Positions 2,296 to 57,450 of a stretch of DNA of 58,712 nt are shown piece after piece. The notes under the pieces were generated by a model. That model saw nothing but the letters and a program-made list of their open reading frames with translations, was not told where the DNA came from and ran no database searches. The stretch's first letter is position 1; the number at the start of each line of letters is the position of its first letter. Where the stretch lies: positions 1 through 58,712 of the forward strand of contig NW_021833004.1 of assembly GCF_006345805.1 (NCBI RefSeq), read 5' to 3'. This DNA comes from Octopus sinensis. Its lineage: Eukaryota. A program made the position numbers and the translations under genes.

Positions 2296-2957
2296 ATGTA
2301 GATGTGTCATATACTCTTCCAGACATGTTGGCCGCATGACACATGGCTCATCATGAGGTGGGCCGCACAACTAAAAATAAATTTTAACTCTCTATTTCGA
2401 AAGTACGAGCGGGCCGCAGCCGGCACATCGATATGAACGGTTTCTTAAACAAATCGAGACCCGTTTGGTTTTGTTTGCTTGTTGTTATTCTTAGTTTGGT
2501 GTGGTGGACAAAAAAAAAATAGGTAGACCTCAATATCGTTGTAAAGAGAGGATCATATCTATTGAGTGATACAGCTCTAGAGACTCACATACAGAACTTG
2601 AAGTTTCTGATTCAACGATAAGTTGATTGCAGCAGTGCTTCAGCTGTTGTAAGAACCTTTTCATGCGTGTCACTGAACTTAAAACGGCTAAAGAAGTACT
2701 GTGATCATCGTTTCACAAAACGTGACGTTATTTACGTCTCGATAGCTGTATCGTTTGATATATAGATATACATATAAATATATATATAGGGAGATTTTAC
2801 GAAAAAAACAAAAGACGAAGACCGGTGGTGTACAAAACAAACAGATGTATTAGTATAACGCTCAGGATTAGAGAAAGTCTTTTACGTTTCGAGCCTACGC
2901 TCTTTTATAGAAAGGGATACAGAAAAAACAAGGAGAGAAAAAAATGTGTGTAGTGTA

Positions 2958-5279: not shown

Positions 5280-5461
5280 ATGATAGATTGTTAGCCACTA
5301 CACACATTTTTTTCTCTCCTTGTTGTTTCTGTGTCCCTTTCTGCAGAAAAGCGTAGACTCGAAACGTAAAAGACTTTTTCTATTCCTGAGCGTTATACTA
5401 ATACATCTTTGTTTGTACACCACTGTCTTCATCTTTTGTTTATTTTCGTAAACTTTCCCTA

Positions 5462-5462
<1 letters not shown>
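5280..5462 (+). mobile_element. Solo PLE pLTR-like repeat
   Basis: Reverse complement of 2785-2955. Flanked by (TA)n. Confidence 0.75.
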
Positions 5463-5504
<42 letters not shown>

Positions 5505-5526
5505 TATATATATTATATATATATAT

Positions 5527-5569
<43 letters not shown>

Positions 5570-5573
<4 letters not shown>

Positions 5574-5688
5574 TGAAATTTACAGAAAAACAAAAGACGA
5601 AGATAAGTGTATACACTACAAACAGGTGTATTAGTTTGACGCTCGAGAAGGTACGAGGTCTCATACGTTTCGAGCCTACGCTCTTCCT
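5570..5688 (-). mobile_element. Truncated PLE pLTR-like repeat
   Basis: ACAAAAGACGAAGA...GTATTAGTTTGACGCTC...TACGTTTCGAGCCTACGCTCTTC. Confidence 0.7.
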
Positions 5689-5699
5689 TATAAAGGCTC

Positions 5700-5921
5700 T
5701 GGGATGGAAATTCCCTATGGACAAGTGTACCCTCTAAGTTTCATATTCAGTTTGGGACGCTGGTGGCGCAGGGCTTGGAATTTTTCAGCATTAAGCTGCA
5801 TGTTATTATCCTCAGCCCATCTGTAAATTCAGTCCAACTACTGCTGCAGATGTGCAACATCGCTGGGGTTCTGTATTTTCTGCGAGATTTTCGTATCGTC
5901 TGTGTAGCTTGCAAGGGTAGC
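5700..5921 (-). mobile_element. CR1/L2-like LINE reverse transcriptase remnant
   Basis: Minus-strand translation ATLASYTDDTKISQKIQNPSDVAHLQQ*LD*IYRWAEDNNMQLNAEKFQAL (YADDTK...LQ.DL...WA..N.M.FN..K pattern, with stops). Confidence 0.8.
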
Positions 5922-6764: not shown

Positions 6765-7935
6765 TAACGGGAAGCTTTATGAAAATAGACAAAAGACGAA
6801 GGCAGGTGGAAAACAAACGAACAATTGTATTAGTATGGCGCTCAGGAAATATAAATAAAACAAGTCTTTAACGTTTCGAGCCTACGCTCTTCAACAGAAA
6901 GATACACAGAGAGAGAAAAACACAGAAAGAAGGAGAGAAAAAAAATGCGTGCAGTAGCTAACGAATCAACATGGCGATCTGATTTCGGCCAGAGGTCAAA
7001 GATCAAACATGAGACGCGAGAGCGAAATAAGGGGAGCTAATAGGTTGATAATAGTTGAAGGACCAGCTAATAGTGCGTAGGAGGGGTCTGGACGTGTGTG
7101 TATAGGGTTGGTGTATGTATTAGTATGTATAAGGGGTGGTGTGTGTGTGTGTGTGGTGGTGTATGAGAGAGTATTGGTGCGTAGGATTGGTGTGGACGTG
7201 CGTATGTATGGGGTTGGTGTATGTATTAGTATGTATTAGTATGTATTAGTACGTATTAGTATGTATAAGTGTGTGTGTGTGTGTGTATGAGAGAGTATAA
7301 GTGCGTATGAGGGGTCTGGACGTGTGTATGTATAGGGTTGTGTATGTATTAGTATGTATTAGTACGTATATACGTATTAGTTAGTATTGTATTAGTTGGT
7401 GTATGTATTAGTATGGCACATCATATATGATGTGATGTGTGAAGTCGTGTGGTGTAGTGAGGAGAAGAGGGGGGAGGGGAGGGGGAGAGGGGGAGAGGGG
7501 GAGAGGAGGGGGAGAAGGAAGGGGAGGAGGTGGAGGAAGGAGGAAGAGGGGAGAAGGGGAGTGAGGGAGCAGAGGAAGGGAAGAGGGAAGGAGGGGAGGG
7601 AGAAAGAGGGAAGAAGGGAAGGGGAGTAGGGTGGGTGAAGGATGAAGGACTGAAGAAGTAGGGGTCGGGGGGAAAGGATAGGTGAGGAGGGGGGAGAGGG
7701 GGGTTAGATGAGGGGAGAGGGGAGAGTTGAGACCAAATGGCGTATAAGAGCGAAGAGAGAAGATTAATTCCTGTTCACGGCGCAAAGGAATCCGGATGGC
7801 CTCTGTGTAAGGACAAACCGAACCACAGATAGGTGTTGCAAGGAGTGACCGGTGGAGCGGAAATGGCGTGGACCGGTGTGTCGTTCGCAAGGTGGATGTC
7901 ACGAAGGTGTTCCGCGAACCGGTCAGCCAAGCGGC
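6765..7935 (-). mobile_element. 3' end of a Penelope-like element: GIY-YIG endonuclease C-terminus, spacer, and pLTR with hammerhead motif
   Basis: 7730-7935 (minus, frameshifted) reads RLADRFAEHLRDIHLANDTPV/RHFRSTGHSLQHLSV/RREQELIFSLRSYTPFGLN, the typical PLE GIY-YIG tail (E..I..L....P.GLN). A pyrimidine-rich and AC-rich spacer and the ~170-bp repeat follow. Confidence 0.8.
6866..6901 (-). ncRNA. Minimal type I hammerhead ribozyme-like motif (variant core) in the PLE pLTR
   Basis: CUUU-CUGUUGA-A-GAGC-GUAG-GCUC-GAAA-CG-UU-AAAG. Confidence 0.55.
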
Positions 7936-8083
7936 ATATATATATATATATATATCTTTATAAGCCACACAGGGCTGAACACAGAGGGGACAAATTACAA
8001 AGTAGACCTTTTCTTTTTTGGAGCAAAAGAAAGAAAATAAAAATAATAAAAAAATAAAAAGGGGTAGATTATGTATATACATA

Positions 8084-8130
<47 letters not shown>

Positions 8131-8136
8131 ATATAT

Positions 8137-8320
8137 TGATTCGCCATGATAGATCGGTAGCACTACACACATTTTTCTTCTCTTTGTTTTTTCTGTGTTC
8201 CTTTCTGTAGAAGAGCATAGGCTCGAAACGTAAAAGACTTTTTCTATTCCCGAGCGTTAAACTAATACATTTGTTTGTTTTCTACACCACCTCTCTTCGT
8301 CTTTTTGTAACTTCTCCCTG
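8137..8320 (+). mobile_element. Solo PLE pLTR-like repeat
   Basis: Same family, flanked by (TA)n. Confidence 0.75.
8201..8236 (+). ncRNA. Minimal type I hammerhead ribozyme-like motif (variant core)
   Basis: CUUU-CUGUAGA-A-GAGC-AUAG-GCUC-GAAA-CG-UA-AAAG. Confidence 0.55.
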
Positions 8321-8394
<74 letters not shown>

Positions 8395-8759: not shown

Positions 8760-8974
8760 CTCTCTCTTTTACTTGTTTCAGTCATTTGACTGCGGCCATG
8801 CTGGAGCACCGCCTTTTAGTCGAGCAACTCGACCCCGGGACTTATTCGTTTTGTAAGCCCAGTACTTATTCTATCGGTCTCTTTTTGCCGAACCGCTAAG
8901 CGACAGGGACGTAAACACACCAGCATCGGTTGTCAAGCAATGCTAGGGGGACAAACACACACACACACACATAT

Positions 8975-9010
<36 letters not shown>

Positions 9011-9183
9011 ATATATACGACGGGCTTCTTTCAGTTTCCGTCTACCAAATCCACTCACAAGGCTTTGGTCGGCCCAGGGCTATAGCAGAAGACACTTGCC
9101 CAAGATGCCACGCAGTGGGACTGAACCCGGAACCATGTGGTTGGTTAGCAAGCTACTTACCACACAGCCACTCCTGCGCCTAT
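8760..9183 (-). mobile_element. Full-length abundant tRNA/CORE-type SINE with internal (TA)/(TG) microsatellite
   Basis: High identity to 48247-48657 and 57030-57450. tRNA-like head TGGCTGTGTGG...GGTTCAGTCCC, CORE-like CTTGGGCAAGTG, tail ACAAGTAAAAGAG. Confidence 0.88.
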
Positions 9184-21411: not shown

Positions 21412-23427
21412 TTACGCCTCCAAATCGGTCCACATTGGCATTCTGGAAGTAGCAAAGGGTTTCTCGGCGGCTCCCAAACTGAAGAAAGCGTCGTAGGTCG
21501 ACGAGGAGGACAGAGAAGACGAAGACGAAGAATTCGACGAGATGTGAGCTGCTCCAGAAGGGTCGTTGAGAGTTTGGTAAAACATCTTGTATGAAGACTG
21601 ACCAGGTGAAGTAAAACTGCCGGTTCCGCTGGTGTAGTCCTGTCCGGTCAAGTTGAAAGCATTGAAGGGGTGGAAGCTGTTCTCGTAGGTCTCATGCTGT
21701 CGCACCGTCTCGTAGGGGAGCGGTGGTGGCGTCGTAGGTGTGCCAGGAGCATTTGGGGACAATCTGGAGGTGGCCAAAGCGAGCTCGTCCCCAACGTTGT
21801 GAGAGGAGGACATGGCGAGTCTCCCGAGAGCGGACAAATTGCTGGACAACCCCGTAGCCGTCGAAGAAGAGAGCATACCGTTAATATTATTGATGTGGTT
21901 GTTGTTATTGTTGATGTTGTTGCCTCCCATGTTGCTGCTGTTGATGATGATGAGGCTGGATGGTCCAGCGGAGTTTGAGGTGGTCGAAGTGGTGAAAGAT
22001 GGGGTTGTGGCGGCGTTCATGTTATTCAGGTGGTTGTTGTAGATGTTAATATTATTGTTGTTGTTGTTGTTTGGGAAATCGTCGCCGAAGAAGAGAGGAC
22101 TCTGCCGGTTGAGACTCCTCGTCGGACTCTCGCTGACGCTGGACGGAGGGGGAGAGTCACCTGTGGATCCAAGAGAAGGTGGGCTGGAGTTGTAACTGAT
22201 CAGCTTAGGCCTGCTGTTGTTAGCACCGAATGCGGCGCCACCTGTTGGAGACAGTCGTGAACTATAGAACGGGGAGAATTGAGGAAGAGGTGGCGAGTGC
22301 TGGGGTGACAAGCTGGAAGGCCCTGTCAATAGTGAAACCCCATTAGTACCACTGGTACCGTTTTGGCTGTAGTGACTGCTGCTGTTGCTATGGTACTGCT
22401 GTTGCTGTTGATGGCTGAGACCAGACTCTTTTAACAAGGAACTTTGGTGGTGGTGATGGTGAGAGTTGTGTTGCTGGTGGGGCGAGTGGTGGGGGAGGTG
22501 GAGGGGAGGTGGAGAGGTGGCGGCCGCAGTGCTCGTGGGGCCGGCGACCCCGATTGCATTGCTGTTGACAGCATTGTGAAGACTGACGGACAGGCCGGGA
22601 GACGGGGATGACGAGGAGGAAGACGAAGGTGACCCACCACCGGACGACATGGCCCCACCGGCGGCAGCGGAAGTGTTGGAGGAGCAGCTGGAAGCGGTGG
22701 TACCTGAAGAGGTCTTGCGCTCGTTCTCGTTGTGGATAAAGTGGCACCGAGGACCGTAGGGGCAGAAGCCGCTGGAATGGTAAGTGCGGCAGGGTTCCGT
22801 CTTGTACTTTGGGTGCCTGGCTGGCGTCCTCAGCTCCGTGGTGCCATGGGCATAGCGGCACTTCTCACCATATTTGCATTGACGACTCTCATCATAGGAA
22901 CGACAAAGTTCTGTCTTGTACTTGTTAGAATTTATTTGACTCAGGCTGCTGCTGCTGCCACTGCTGCTACTACTGCTACAACTACCAACACCATTATTAT
23001 TGTTGTTGTTGTTGTTATTGTGGTGGTTGCCGTTGTGGTGGTGGTGGCCATTGGCGATGGCTGCAGAGCGAGAGGAATCGGCAGGTTCACTCATGCTGCG
23101 ATCCAATTTGCAAGGATGAGACGGAACCATTGTGCTATGGGAGGTGTTGTTGTTGCCGTTGTTGTTACCTCCTGGCCCACTGGATGAGATCAAGGAATTA
23201 TGGCTGTTCAAACGCATGTAGTATTGGGCCGACGAAGACGTAGACGATGTGGTGTTGCTGTTTGACGAAGTGGATATGATGGACACGGATGACGCTCCGA
23301 CTGGAGGCGCGCCAGACGATAGGGTAATCTTCCGATTGCGAGACGCAGACGAGCCGATATCCACTGGGCCACCAACTGCTTTACGATCGATTGTGGTCGA
23401 AGATCTGTGAGAAACCGAGTTCGGAGT
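21412..23427 (-). CDS. tis11: TIS11/ZFP36-family (tristetraprolin/ZFP36L1/L2-like) tandem CCCH zinc-finger mRNA decay activator, main coding exon 2
   Basis: The 650-aa ORF holds two C-x8-C-x5-C-x3-H fingers with KYKTEL/KYKTEP lead-ins and an 18-aa linker. The frame stays open upstream of the track's GTG start to a TTTTATTTTCCAG acceptor at 23428-23430. This adds [21 protein letters not shown]; DRKAVG is the conserved N-terminal motif of ZFP36L1/L2. Stop TAA at 21412-21414. Confidence 0.96.
22732..22923 (-). other. Tandem CCCH zinc-finger (TZF) RNA-binding domain
   Basis: [64 protein letters not shown]. Confidence 0.97.
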
Positions 23428-23611
23428 CTGGAAAATAAAAATTAAAAAATAAATATTAAAAGACGATTAAAAAAAAAAAAAGCAAAATACAACAAGAAGA
23501 TCTGATATATACAGGCTAAACGAAAATTTTTCCTTTATATCCAAACCAGGCATTTGTTATCCAATATCTTATATTGCTTCCAGAACCATTCGAAAACATT
23601 TTAAACATATA

Positions 23612-44310: not shown

Positions 44311-44575
44311 CTCTTTACTCTTTTACTTGTTTCAGTCATTTGACTGTGGCCATGCTGGAGCACCGCCTTTAGTCGAGCAAATCGACCCCAGGACTTATGT
44401 TCTTATTCTATCGGTCTTTTTTGCCGAACCGCTAAGTGACAGGGATGTAAACACACCAGCATCGGTTGTCAAGCAATGCTAGGGGGACAAACACAGACAC
44501 ACAAACATACACGCACACACATATATATATACACACATATACGACAGGCTTCTTTCAGTTTCCGTCTACCAAATC
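44311..44575 (-). mobile_element. 5'-truncated copy of the CORE-type SINE
   Basis: Matches the 3' two-thirds of 57030-57450. Confidence 0.8.
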
Positions 44576-44594
44576 TACTATTACTATTACTATT

Positions 44595-48246: not shown

Positions 48247-48467
48247 ACTCTTTTACTTCTTTCAGTCATTTGACTGCGGCCATGCTGGAGCACCGCCTTT
48301 AGTCGAGCAAATCGACCCCGGGACTTATTCTTTTGTAAGCCCAGTACTTATTCTATCGGTCTCTTTTGCCGAACCGCTAAGTGACAGGGACGTAAACACA
48401 CCAGCATCGGTTGTCAAGCAATGCTAGGGGGACAAACACAGACACACAAACATATACACACACACAT

Positions 48468-48498
<31 letters not shown>

Positions 48499-48657
48499 CG
48501 ACAGGCTTCTTTCAGTTTCCGTCTACCAAATCCACTCACAAGGCTTTGGTCGGCCCGAGGCTATAGCAGAAGACACTTGCCAAAGGAGCCACGCAGTGGG
48601 AATGAACCCGTAACAATATGGTTGGCTAGCAAGCTACTTACCACACAGCCACTCCTA
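48247..48657 (-). mobile_element. Full-length copy of the same CORE-type SINE
   Basis: Aligns end to end with 8760-9183. Confidence 0.88.
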
Positions 48658-48728: not shown

Positions 48729-49028
48729 CAGTGGCGGACTGGCCAGGTTGCCAGCTTTGCCGATGGCAAGTGGGCCCCTGCGCCATTAGAATCCATATAT
48801 GGGGGCCTATGTTAGTATCTAACGGGCCCATCTCCTCAAGTTTAAGAATTTTGGGGGGTTTTTTCACTGGAAGAATGCATTATTTCAGCCTAGCTGTGTT
48901 TGTAGACAGTTCAAAAGAATACTTTTAACAAAAAAATTAAATGATAGTACTGTAGTTGCGGATGGCCCCCTCTGTAATTGCGTATGGGCCCCCTTAGTCT
49001 CCTGGCAACCAATATTTTTAGGCCCAGT
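48729..49028. mobile_element. Non-autonomous DNA transposon/MITE remnant
   Basis: Left end CAGTGGCGGACTGGCCAGGTTGCCAG and right end CTGGCAACC...GGCCCAGT are partly inverted. Internal GGGCCC motifs. Confidence 0.5.
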
Positions 49029-49289
49029 AAAGTATTAGCAGTTGCTCAATAAAGGAAAGAAAGATGGTTTAACGTTTCAAGCAAAGCTCTTCTTCAGGAA
49101 CAGAGGGAAGTCCAATAGAAAAGGAAGATGGAGGGGGAAAATCGTCTACGAGCATTTTCGGCTTAGCTCACAATGTTCGGAGTATTCGACACTGAGGAGA
49201 CTAACTCACGCCGAAACGTTGTGTCTGGTGATCCACTGGCGTTCCAAGTAAAGCCCTGTGCTCCGAACGTCGGAGACAACATCAACTTT

Positions 49290-53082: not shown

Positions 53083-53803
53083 CAGAGTACAGCAGAGTAC
53101 CACAGGGTACAGCAGAATACCCTAGGGTACATCAGAATACCACAGGGTACAGCAGAGTACCACAGGGTACAGCAGAATACCCTAGGGTACATCAGAATAC
53201 CACAGGGTACAGCAGAGTACCACAGGGTACAGCAGAGTACCACAGGGTACAGCAGAATACCCTAGGGTACATCAGAATACCACAGGGTACAGCAGAGTAC
53301 CATAGGGTACAGCAGAATACCCTAGGGTACATCAGAATACCACAGGGTACAGCAGAGTACCACAGGGTACAGCAGAATACCACAGGGTACAGCAGAGTAC
53401 CACAGGGTACAGCAGATACCACAGGATACAGCAGAGTACCACAGGGTACAGCAGAATACCACAGGATACAGCAGAGTACCACAGGGTACATCAGATACCA
53501 CAGGATACAGCAGAGTACCACAGGGTACAGCAGAATACCCCAGGGTACAGAAGAGTACCACAGGGTACAGCAGAATACCACAGGATACAGCAGAGTACCA
53601 CAGGGTACATCAGATACCACAGGATACAGCAGAGTACCACAGGGTACAGCAGAATACCCCAGGGTACAGAAGAGTACCACAGGGTACAGCAGAATACCAC
53701 AGGATACAGCAGAGTACCACAGGGTACATCAGATACCACAGGATACAGCAGAGTACCACAGGGTACAGCAGAATACCACAGGGTACAGCAGGGTACCACA
53801 GTA
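53083..53803. repeat. Minisatellite, 10/20-bp unit (AGCAGARTAC CACAGGRTAC), ~36 dimers
   Basis: Directly visible tandem array. Confidence 0.95.
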
Positions 53804-53809
53804 TGTTGT

Positions 53810-53966
53810 CCTTGTTGTGCTGCGGTGGTTTGTGTGGTTCAATGACCCTCAGAGCTATACCTGCATAGAGAGGGATCCAATGGAGTGCAAGCTCCTGCTA
53901 GGGTGGCTCCTTCGCTGGACAGAGCAAATGATAGAGGATAGACTAATATGGACTACCTCTCCCCAC
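53810..53966 (+). mobile_element. RTE-like LINE 5' UTR fragment
   Basis: CTTGTTGTG..GGTTTGTGTGGTTCAATGACCCTCAGAGCTATACC..CTCCTGCTAGGGT..GGACAG..GACTAA resembles RTE/BovB/Expander 5' ends (recognised from memory). Confidence 0.45.
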
Positions 53967-55731: not shown

Positions 55732-55736
<5 letters not shown>

Positions 55737-55892
55737 AGAGTTTACGAAAATAAACAAAGACGAAGACAGGTGGTGTAGAAAACAAACAGATGTATTAGTA
55801 TAACGCTCAGGAATAGAAAAAGCCTTTTACGTTTCGAGCCTACGCTCTTCTACAGAAAGGGACACAGAAAAAAACAAGGAGAGAAAAAAATG
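55732..55892 (-). mobile_element. Solo PLE pLTR-like repeat
   Basis: Near-identical to 2785-2955. Flanked by (TA)n. Confidence 0.78.
55823..55860 (-). ncRNA. Minimal type I hammerhead ribozyme-like motif (variant core)
   Basis: CCUUU-CUGUAGA-A-GAGC-GUAG-GCUC-GAAA-CG-UA-AAAGG. Confidence 0.58.
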
Positions 55893-56782: not shown

Positions 56783-57029
56783 TATTCCTTGCTTGACACC
56801 CTTCTCAATTGGCATTCTTATTGGTGATGACTGCAGAGATATCTCTGTTATGCATCCGGTGTTCGCTCAGAATTCACATCAAAGTGCTCAGAACCTCTGA
56901 GCACTTTGCTGTATTGTGTCTCAACACCTTACATTTCCAGTGATTTCAAAACTGAGTTCATCTCGACGCTATCAGACGCCATTCGTAACCTAACTCAGAA
57001 TCTACAGAACCCGGAGTATAAAAGATTCA

Positions 57030-57450
57030 TAGGCGTAGGAGTGGCTGTGTGGTAAGTAGCTTGCTAACCAACCACATGGTTCCGGGTTCAGTCCCACTGC
57101 GTGGCATCTTGGGCAAGTGTCTTCTGCTATAGCCCCGGGCCGACCAATGCCTTGTGAGTGGATTTGGTAGACGGAAACTGAAAGAAGCCTGTCGTATATA
57201 TGTATATATATATGTATGTGTGTGTATATGTTTGTGTGTCTGTGTTTGTCCCCCTAGCATTGCTTGACAACCGATGCTGGTGTGTTTACCTCCCCGTCAC
57301 TTAGCGGTTCGGCAAAAGAGACCGATAGAATAAGTACTGGGCTTACAAAGAATAAGTCCCGGGGTCGATTTGCTCGACGAAAAGGCGGTGCTCCAGCATG
57401 GCCGCAGTCAAATGACTGAAAACAAGTAAAAGAGTAAAAGAGAAAGAGAG
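57030..57450 (+). mobile_element. Full-length copy of the same CORE-type SINE
   Basis: Reverse-complement match to 8760-9183. Confidence 0.88.

Follow-up and report, generated by a model that had tools for sequence, protein, structure and literature searches.

A hammerhead motif with uracil at core position 6 (U6) is the genome-wide state of a recently amplified, Neptune-like Penelope element in Octopus sinensis, one copy of which lies near the end of the window (the whole 58,712-nt stretch of DNA that was analysed). The A that is expected of hammerheads at this position is rare in the family, and the remainder of the motif has stayed constant, apart from two positions, across subfamilies whose flanks differ widely. 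We consider it probable, judging from sequence comparison, that the motif is a slowed ribozyme that is still under selection and would depend on a second copy, or on the protein of the element, to cut.

The motif and its copies in the window

Read on the minus strand, positions 55859-55824 give CUUU / CUGUAGA / A / GAGC-GUAG-GCUC / GAAA / CG / UA / AAAG. The features of a minimal type I hammerhead are present, namely stems I and II, C3 U4 G5, G8 A9, G12 A13 A14, A15.1, U16.1 and H17. The parts listed below were assigned by reading the sequence, with fold energies computed for the motif as a whole and genome-wide counts added for U6.

55824..55859, minus strand: minimal type I hammerhead motif
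55859-55856 / 55827-55824, minus strand: stem I, CUUU / AAAG
55855-55849, minus strand: hammerhead core C3-A9, CUGUAGA
55852, minus strand: U6, the non-canonical core nucleotide
55848, minus strand: extra A after the core
55847-55836, minus strand: stem II, GAGC-GUAG-GCUC
55835-55832, minus strand: GAAA
55832-55829, minus strand: palindromic ACGU
55828, minus strand: predicted cut after A17

A shifted register, in which GAAGA three bases on would give back A6, was rejected because position 4 would then vary and two surplus bases would precede GAAA; it is also ruled out by a sister family with A6 (see below), which fixes the register. Downstream, GAGCG (55803-55808, minus strand; in the same place in all subfamilies) repeats the 5' strand of stem II. 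Both families, A6 and U6, have kept this block, and for several consensuses competition with stem II for GCUC is predicted; in the folding predictions its shutting of stem II depends on context, and a role as an off-switch for stem II is possible. The two bases directly 5' of stem I (55860-55863, minus strand, and equivalents) differ by subfamily, being CC, AU or UC. They sit between a kept GU and a downstream AC, and a bulged extension of stem I could form.

The six motifs of the family and the related motif at 49066 all lie at the coordinates given by the initial annotation. The copies that carry them, mostly stubs of a pseudo-LTR (pLTR), are as follows.

55735..55892, minus strand: 5'-truncated pLTR stub of subfamily G4 (A7/GUA), 98.6% identity to the subfamily consensus over 147 nt
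6776..7935, minus strand: longer copy of the youngest subfamily, G1 (U7/GUU); blastn to locus L084, 89% over 1,208 columns
8141..8335, plus strand: pLTR stub placed between G4 and G5 by sequence comparison, U6 hammerhead at 8201-8236
5286..5476, plus strand: pLTR stub of G4 with a decayed hammerhead at 5337-5372 (private C6, broken stem II)
5588..5686, minus strand: old (G8) stub, 5'-truncated inside the core (the 5664 copy)
2790..2947, minus strand: pLTR stub of G4 with a decayed core (G5A, G8A), hammerhead at 2879-2914
49027..49151, minus strand: sister-family copy with canonical CUGAAGA-A core and 3-nt loop II; G-C outer stem I pair in the sister consensus

The family had been described as a ~170-bp repeat, which is right as the usual length of a stub but not as the size of the repeat: the copy at 6776..7935 reaches ~1.2 kb into the element's endonuclease region and comprises the end of the GIY-YIG region, the 3' UTR and the pLTR, with a U6 hammerhead at 6866-6901 and tblastn matches at 7720-8025. 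Three copies have an intact U6 core (55823, 8201 and 6866). The CUGCAGA copy at 5337, counted as intact by the initial annotation, is not an intact fold, as its stem II reads AAGC/ACUC, and is a decayed member of a U6 subfamily. The 3' end of the stub at 55735..55892 adjoins a (TA)n tract.

The copies cluster, the 5337 and 5664 stubs being tail-to-tail across one (TA)n tract (5304-5686) and the two copies within 6776-8335 being head-to-head, ~200 nt apart. Directly 5' of the 5664 stub lies a fragment that, by eye, is like the end of a LINE reverse transcriptase frame (5687-5900, minus strand), and LINE-like frames resembling it also occur in loci L082 and L086. Elsewhere, we see one clear host gene in the window, an open frame of 684 codons (21412-23466, minus strand) that encodes two zinc fingers of the CCCH type (Pfam zf-CCCH, E 1.1e-17); we take it to resemble ZFP36/Tis11. 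Another dispersed repeat family, SINE-like by appearance, has copies at 8883-9183, 44399-44579, 48332-48657 and 57029-57349 that match at 91-95%, and a minisatellite array with a 10/20-nt unit occupies 53098-53832. The output of the repeat finder for the window is dominated by microsatellites.

Host element and genome-wide state of position 6

The proposed link to Penelope elements was upheld: the repeat is the 3' pLTR of an autonomous Neptune-like Penelope element with reverse transcriptase (RT) and GIY-YIG endonuclease (EN), which was reached by walking upstream from the 6866 copy to related loci. One of these, L081, has an open frame of 952 codons, which begins with ~90 codons of microsatellite and contains an RVT_1 match above the cut-off (E 9.8e-08), the motifs DKG, GVAMG and YIDD, the linker CSRPRCRTC and a GIY-YIG-like region. 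Pfam recognises GIY-YIG in L086, though weakly and with a match that stays below the cut-off (E 0.003). An RT-EN search returned 917 relatives at E<=1e-30 among 6,144 candidates, the best listed having 44-59% identity. The arrangement is that of an EN+ Penelope-like element, a single ORF with a telomerase-like RT followed by a GIY-YIG endonuclease. Locus L084 contains an 834-column direct repeat of 92% identity, and the same layout of partial-tandem pLTRs is found in L089 and L085. The hammerheads of the two pLTRs are 4,352 nt apart in L084 and 4,177 nt apart in L089, and in these pLTR-ORF-pLTR loci the ORF begins ~700 nt after the upstream hammerhead. Both pLTRs of L084 and of L089 read CUGUUGA.

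The CX2-5CxxC linker, common to Neptune and Nematis (PMC8557442), is present as CSRPRCRTC in L081, L083, L085 and L086. Together with the (TA)n targets it fits the description of Neptune in the compared portion of that paper, and the assignment is one by motifs and target type. An identity as a non-LTR retrozyme (tandem non-coding units of 150-600 nt with one hammerhead each) was rejected, the copies being solitary truncations of a coding element; the close pairs examined share host flanks or are partial tandems.

Exact matches to a 33-letter pattern with positions 6 and 7 left free were sought throughout the 2.72 Gb genome. There are 7,769, against 0 for the reversed control, and the abundance of the motif is far beyond chance; with stem II plus GAAAC as the only anchor, the number of matches rises to 18,502. 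U6 (CUGUNGA) is found in 7,485 of the 7,769 exact matches (96.3%) and another base in 284. By-eye tallying of the first 100 of these 284 listed gave 71 C, 22 A and 7 G, from which A6 is estimated at ~0.8% and C6 at ~2.6% of exact matches, C6 mostly in old copies. A6 is found together with each of the four N7 states, the distribution that sporadic point mutations would give. A genome-wide consensus of CUGAAGA, with the copies in the window simply decayed from it, is excluded by these counts, which place the variant core in the amplifying master as the initial annotation had supposed. Its broader wording, a pyrimidine at position 6, needs narrowing: U6 is the state of the family, and the CUGCAGA copy represents private decay.

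C6 combined with U7 has 122 matches, of which 30 were examined (L221, L222, L239 and L242-L268). They fall in four groups, 29 of the 30 in the three oldest. One distinct C6 subfamily is not borne out by this scatter; the bias to old groups seems somewhat greater than U-to-C decay scaled by age would give, and minor C6 masters may have existed. In contigs from four public runs (three studies, three organism codes), the differences listed within the motif, in a table that may be incomplete, are only at N7, at H17 and at the CpG of loop II, so U6 is not an assembly artefact. Contig depth in these runs shows a several-fold peak over the hammerhead, the one motif that the divergent flanks have in common.

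The motif at 49066 does have the canonical CUGAAGA-A core reported for it, and it belongs to a separate family. The corresponding pattern with a 3-nt loop has 427 exact matches, with A6 in 97 of the first 100 listed. With ~57% identity in the flanks, this sister family is laid out like the U6 family, has GAGCG and CUAAUAC blocks downstream as well, and likewise ends at (TA)n. Loop II is a 4-nt GUAG with U6 and 3 nt long with A6. The stems are invariant within the U6 lineage, and one double change separates the two families, the outer stem I pair being G-C in the A6 sister consensus and C-G in the U6 lineage. No ORF tied to the sister family was found in the 30 loci examined, so its Penelope identity rests on the shared pLTR architecture. 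Since the published Penelope rows compared (PMC4209133) are all A6, A6 is likely to be the ancestral and U6 the derived state; this carries no claim that the sister family is the older of the two.

Constraint, read-through and cleavage

Grouping by flank motifs assigned 190 of 215 copies to ten U6 subfamilies and one A6 family and left 25 ungrouped. Among the ten U6 consensuses, 34 of the 36 hammerhead positions are unchanged; variation is confined to N7, where all four bases occur, and H17, which is A or U, and these are the positions that hammerhead chemistry leaves free (CUGANGA and NUH, respectively; PMC7151607). Of 100 flank columns 44 vary, a count inflated by homopolymer runs. Sampling was anchored on stem II and the groups were set after the tree had been viewed; among the columns not fixed by the anchor, 0 of 18 vary (binomial ~3e-5, with the subfamilies forming one ladder, so that columns are not independent tests). 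As a single site, the unchanged U6 is not significant. Read as a ladder, the subfamilies imply five changes at N7 and two at H17. Median divergence from the subfamily consensus ranges from 1.0% to 12.6%, flank identity between U6 consensuses goes down to 68%, and ORF pieces beside old-subfamily copies (L201 and L262) have 53-59% protein identity to the youngest ORF, post-insertion decay included.

A copy-level tally anchored only on stem II and GAAAC gave the same picture in 93 in-register copies out of 99, six having been dropped as truncated or shifted. U6 is present in 92 of the 93; N7 is U in 45, A in 19, C in 16 and G in 13, and H17 is A in 62, U in 30, C in 1 and G in 0. Other core and inner stem I positions are kept in at least 89 of 93 copies, G16.2 in 86, and the outer pair as C in 90 and G in 80. 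Loop II GUAG is as invariant as the core. With only the catalytically free N7 and H17 varying while the flanks vary widely, the pattern fits purifying selection on a hammerhead fold that carries U6.

The 5' end differs from copy to copy, whereas the 3' end is fixed. Nearly all copies read through an intact hammerhead, and they stop at (TA)n, ~100 nt beyond the cut site in the 3' direction; a TA-type run is found 85-135 nt past the cut site in 90 of 99 copies (median 99), an insertion bias to microsatellites that is a Neptune trait. Where an upstream pLTR is present, which is so in three loci, the element runs on at that point via TTATATAT into the 5' region. The internal TTATATAT is located exactly where insertions end (L084:5351-5360, L089:5597-5606 and L085:5235-5244) and matches the (TA)n target, which suggests homology-primed internal initiation, unlike in the anole element. 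Priming of reverse transcription would take place at the internal UUAUAUAU, which would pair with nicked (TA)n DNA, and copying would then have to pass through the hammerhead.

For a footprint of cleavage, 5' ends of copies were tallied by eye at the predicted cut site and, across an identical span of the genome, at a control site that offers the same TA microhomology. There are 21 junctions at the cut site and 11 at the control, a difference that is not significant (one-sided p 0.06-0.15), and the excess is a weak hint at most. Junctions are spread over several sites of T/A microhomology, none of which, the cut site included, stands out as a sole peak. The youngest subfamily has 142 matches, and the first 100 include 22 whose 5' end lies at the cut site, corresponding to ~1% of an estimated 3,500 copies; ~99% or more read through it, and nearly all templates are uncut. 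Short duplications that restart at or next to the cut site were seen in six of the first 100 copies listed, with one duplication at the control site, and are suggestive only. A 56-nt tandem at G000:C3:48592803-48592949 also restarts at or next to the predicted cut site. Together, these could be the trace that run-off and re-priming of the reverse transcriptase might leave.

Folded in isolation, the hammerhead is the predicted minimum free energy (MFE) structure for one of the six motifs that were folded (2879), and in the MFE structures of 55823 and 6866 stems I and II are formed with extra pairs through the core. In context, the predicted probability of stem I is below 0.2 in eight of ten U6 consensuses with the shorter context.

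Precedents for such a core come from other hammerheads; here and below, statements attributed to published papers refer to the portions of text compared. Position 6 had been taken as normally invariant, which is not strictly so, as the natural A6C hammerhead of phage Bcep176 is active but slow (PMC3088659, PMC7151607). In one hammerhead A6C costs more than four orders of magnitude in 0.3 mM Mg2+, and activity stays good in Mn2+ (PMC7151607). Hammerheads with one or two changes in the CUGA turn had low activity when mutants were screened comprehensively (PMC9901934). Penelope minimal hammerheads are already weak with A6 (PMC4209133). The hammerhead of PAc, the anole element, cuts only with the element's protein, and its mutants insert normally in vitro, cleavage being dispensable there (PMC11167929).

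The reading that we favour, as probably correct, is that of a slowed and still selected ribozyme in a Neptune-like Penelope that amplified recently. Most copies would be aborted if cutting in cis were fast; a slow ribozyme would leave templates intact and still allow occasional processing of tandem transcripts. Stem III would form between two copies via the ACGU palindrome, folding may be assisted by protein, as in the anole element, and slow cutting would be kept because reverse transcription must read through the hammerhead. A fuller version of the proposal, that this is a cleaving natural U6 hammerhead selected through many masters, its rate lowered (perhaps tuned by N7) because the reverse transcriptase reads through it 100 nt from priming, we put forward tentatively, at slightly below an even chance. 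If it is true, position-6 pyrimidine cores would be a recurrent class of Penelope ribozymes invisible to descriptors.

The main rival, which we regard as rather doubtful, is that the motif no longer cuts, U6 being the lesion that retired catalysis, and that its fold or sequence is kept for protein binding, for positioning reverse transcription or as a DNA promoter in the pLTR. Position-6 changes are deleterious in the hammerheads tested in the papers compared, the anole element inserts in vitro without cleavage, ~99% or more of the youngest copies read through with no significant excess at the cut site, and the non-catalytic loop II GUAG is as invariant as the core, all of which would suit such a role. 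By contrast, the only two changing positions are those that catalysis leaves free: H17 is A, U or C at subfamily level with no amplified G17, and none of G5, G8, G12, A13 and A14 has been lost. Why a binding site or a promoter should obey the N7/H17 rule is not evident. That the ribozyme has been dead since the change from A6 to U and merely hitchhikes, its conservation reflecting short time or the sampling anchor, is quite unlikely and already disfavoured. It is true that all samples required an exact or near-exact stem II or core, so that subfamilies with degenerate motifs would be missed, and that the groups form one ladder whose columns are not independent. However, none of the 18 unanchored columns varies, compared with 44 of the 100 flank columns, copies diverge by 1% to 12.6% and subfamily flanks are down to 68% identity, and the depth of public-run contigs peaks several-fold on the hammerhead, with divergent flanks sharing one motif. 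Full compensation of U6, for example by the GUAG loop II or a metal-ion preference, with activity equal to that of the A6 sister, seems very improbable indeed. U6 does occur together with the 4-nt GUAG loop and A6 with the 3-nt loop, and none of the ten groups is an A6 revertant subfamily; to our knowledge there is no contact between loop II and position 6, which counts against compensation, and efficient cutting should leave more starts at the cut site than the ~1% seen. The good activity of A6C in Mn2+ (PMC7151607) is the remaining point in its favour.

That Penelope elements keep hammerheads calls for an explanation, as cleavage is weak, protein-assisted and dispensable for insertion in vitro. 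The octopus element provides a natural experiment, in which a core change known to slow hammerheads has been fixed in one of the genome's most successful elements (>18,000 copies), although elsewhere the motif is constrained in the way expected of a ribozyme that works. The A6 sister in the same genome is a matched control, and the comparison of U6 with A6 bears on what is selected, slow catalysis or just the fold.

Relation to known systems

Small hammerhead variants tied to Penelope elements and cleaving as dimers were reportedly collected by Lünse, Weinberg and Breaker in 2017, to go by the title. A literature search found no published U6-core hammerhead family, that collection, which could already contain U6 cores, lying outside the comparison. 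The U6 family is also absent from the compared text of PMC6765202, PMC7229834, PMC10085705, PMC11014351, PMC12192606, PMC6155905, PMC6466107 and bioRxiv 10.64898/2026.07.22.740005. An Rfam scan gave no hammerhead match at E<=10 for a U6 copy and likewise none at E<=10 for a canonical A6 copy, so the miss is not specific to U6; for the whole window, no hammerhead was among the best 150 matches listed, which are microsatellite noise. As had been anticipated, canonical descriptors would miss the family, since that of Cervera and De la Pena demands ^cuganga (PMC4209133); cuganga descriptors undercount ribozyme motifs by thousands per genome.

The closest relatives of the motif are the metazoan Penelope minimal hammerheads of Cervera and De la Pena 2014 (PMC4209133), which are likewise type I with a short stem I, lie in the pLTR of mostly solitary, truncated copies, and have an extra nucleotide between 9 and 10.1, G10.1-C11.1 and a palindromic C-G at 15.2/16.2. 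The extra A between A9 and G10.1, singled out as unusual by the initial annotation, is therefore a general trait of these hammerheads. They differ in the core: all alignment rows compared there are A6 (CUGA or UUGA), and the core variant described is U3-A8, not U6. The A6C hammerhead of Bcep176 (Perreault 2011, PMC3088659; Naghdi 2020, PMC7151607) shares a natural pyrimidine at core position 6 and indicates that such a core can cleave; its base is C rather than U, and it is a single phage sequence of full architecture, as opposed to a minimal dimer-type motif at >18,000 copies across subfamilies.

Regarding the element, the Neptune clade (Craig 2021, PMC8557442) has the same C-terminal GIY-YIG, CX2-5CxxC linker, DKG, pLTRs, partial tandems and insertion into microsatellites, whereas canonical hammerheads are said there to be universal in such elements, in contrast to U6 here. 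PAc, the Poseidon element of Anolis (Frangieh 2024, PMC11167929), is also an EN+ Penelope with an internal start of reverse transcription, AT-rich targets and uncut RNA as the main template. However, no core change is reported for it in the text compared, its start site is not homologous to the target, unlike the internal TTATATAT of the octopus element, and it belongs to another clade. Both the element and the minimal hammerhead are thus of known kinds, and the U6 core is a new and well-supported variant of them, with an activity predicted from sequence.
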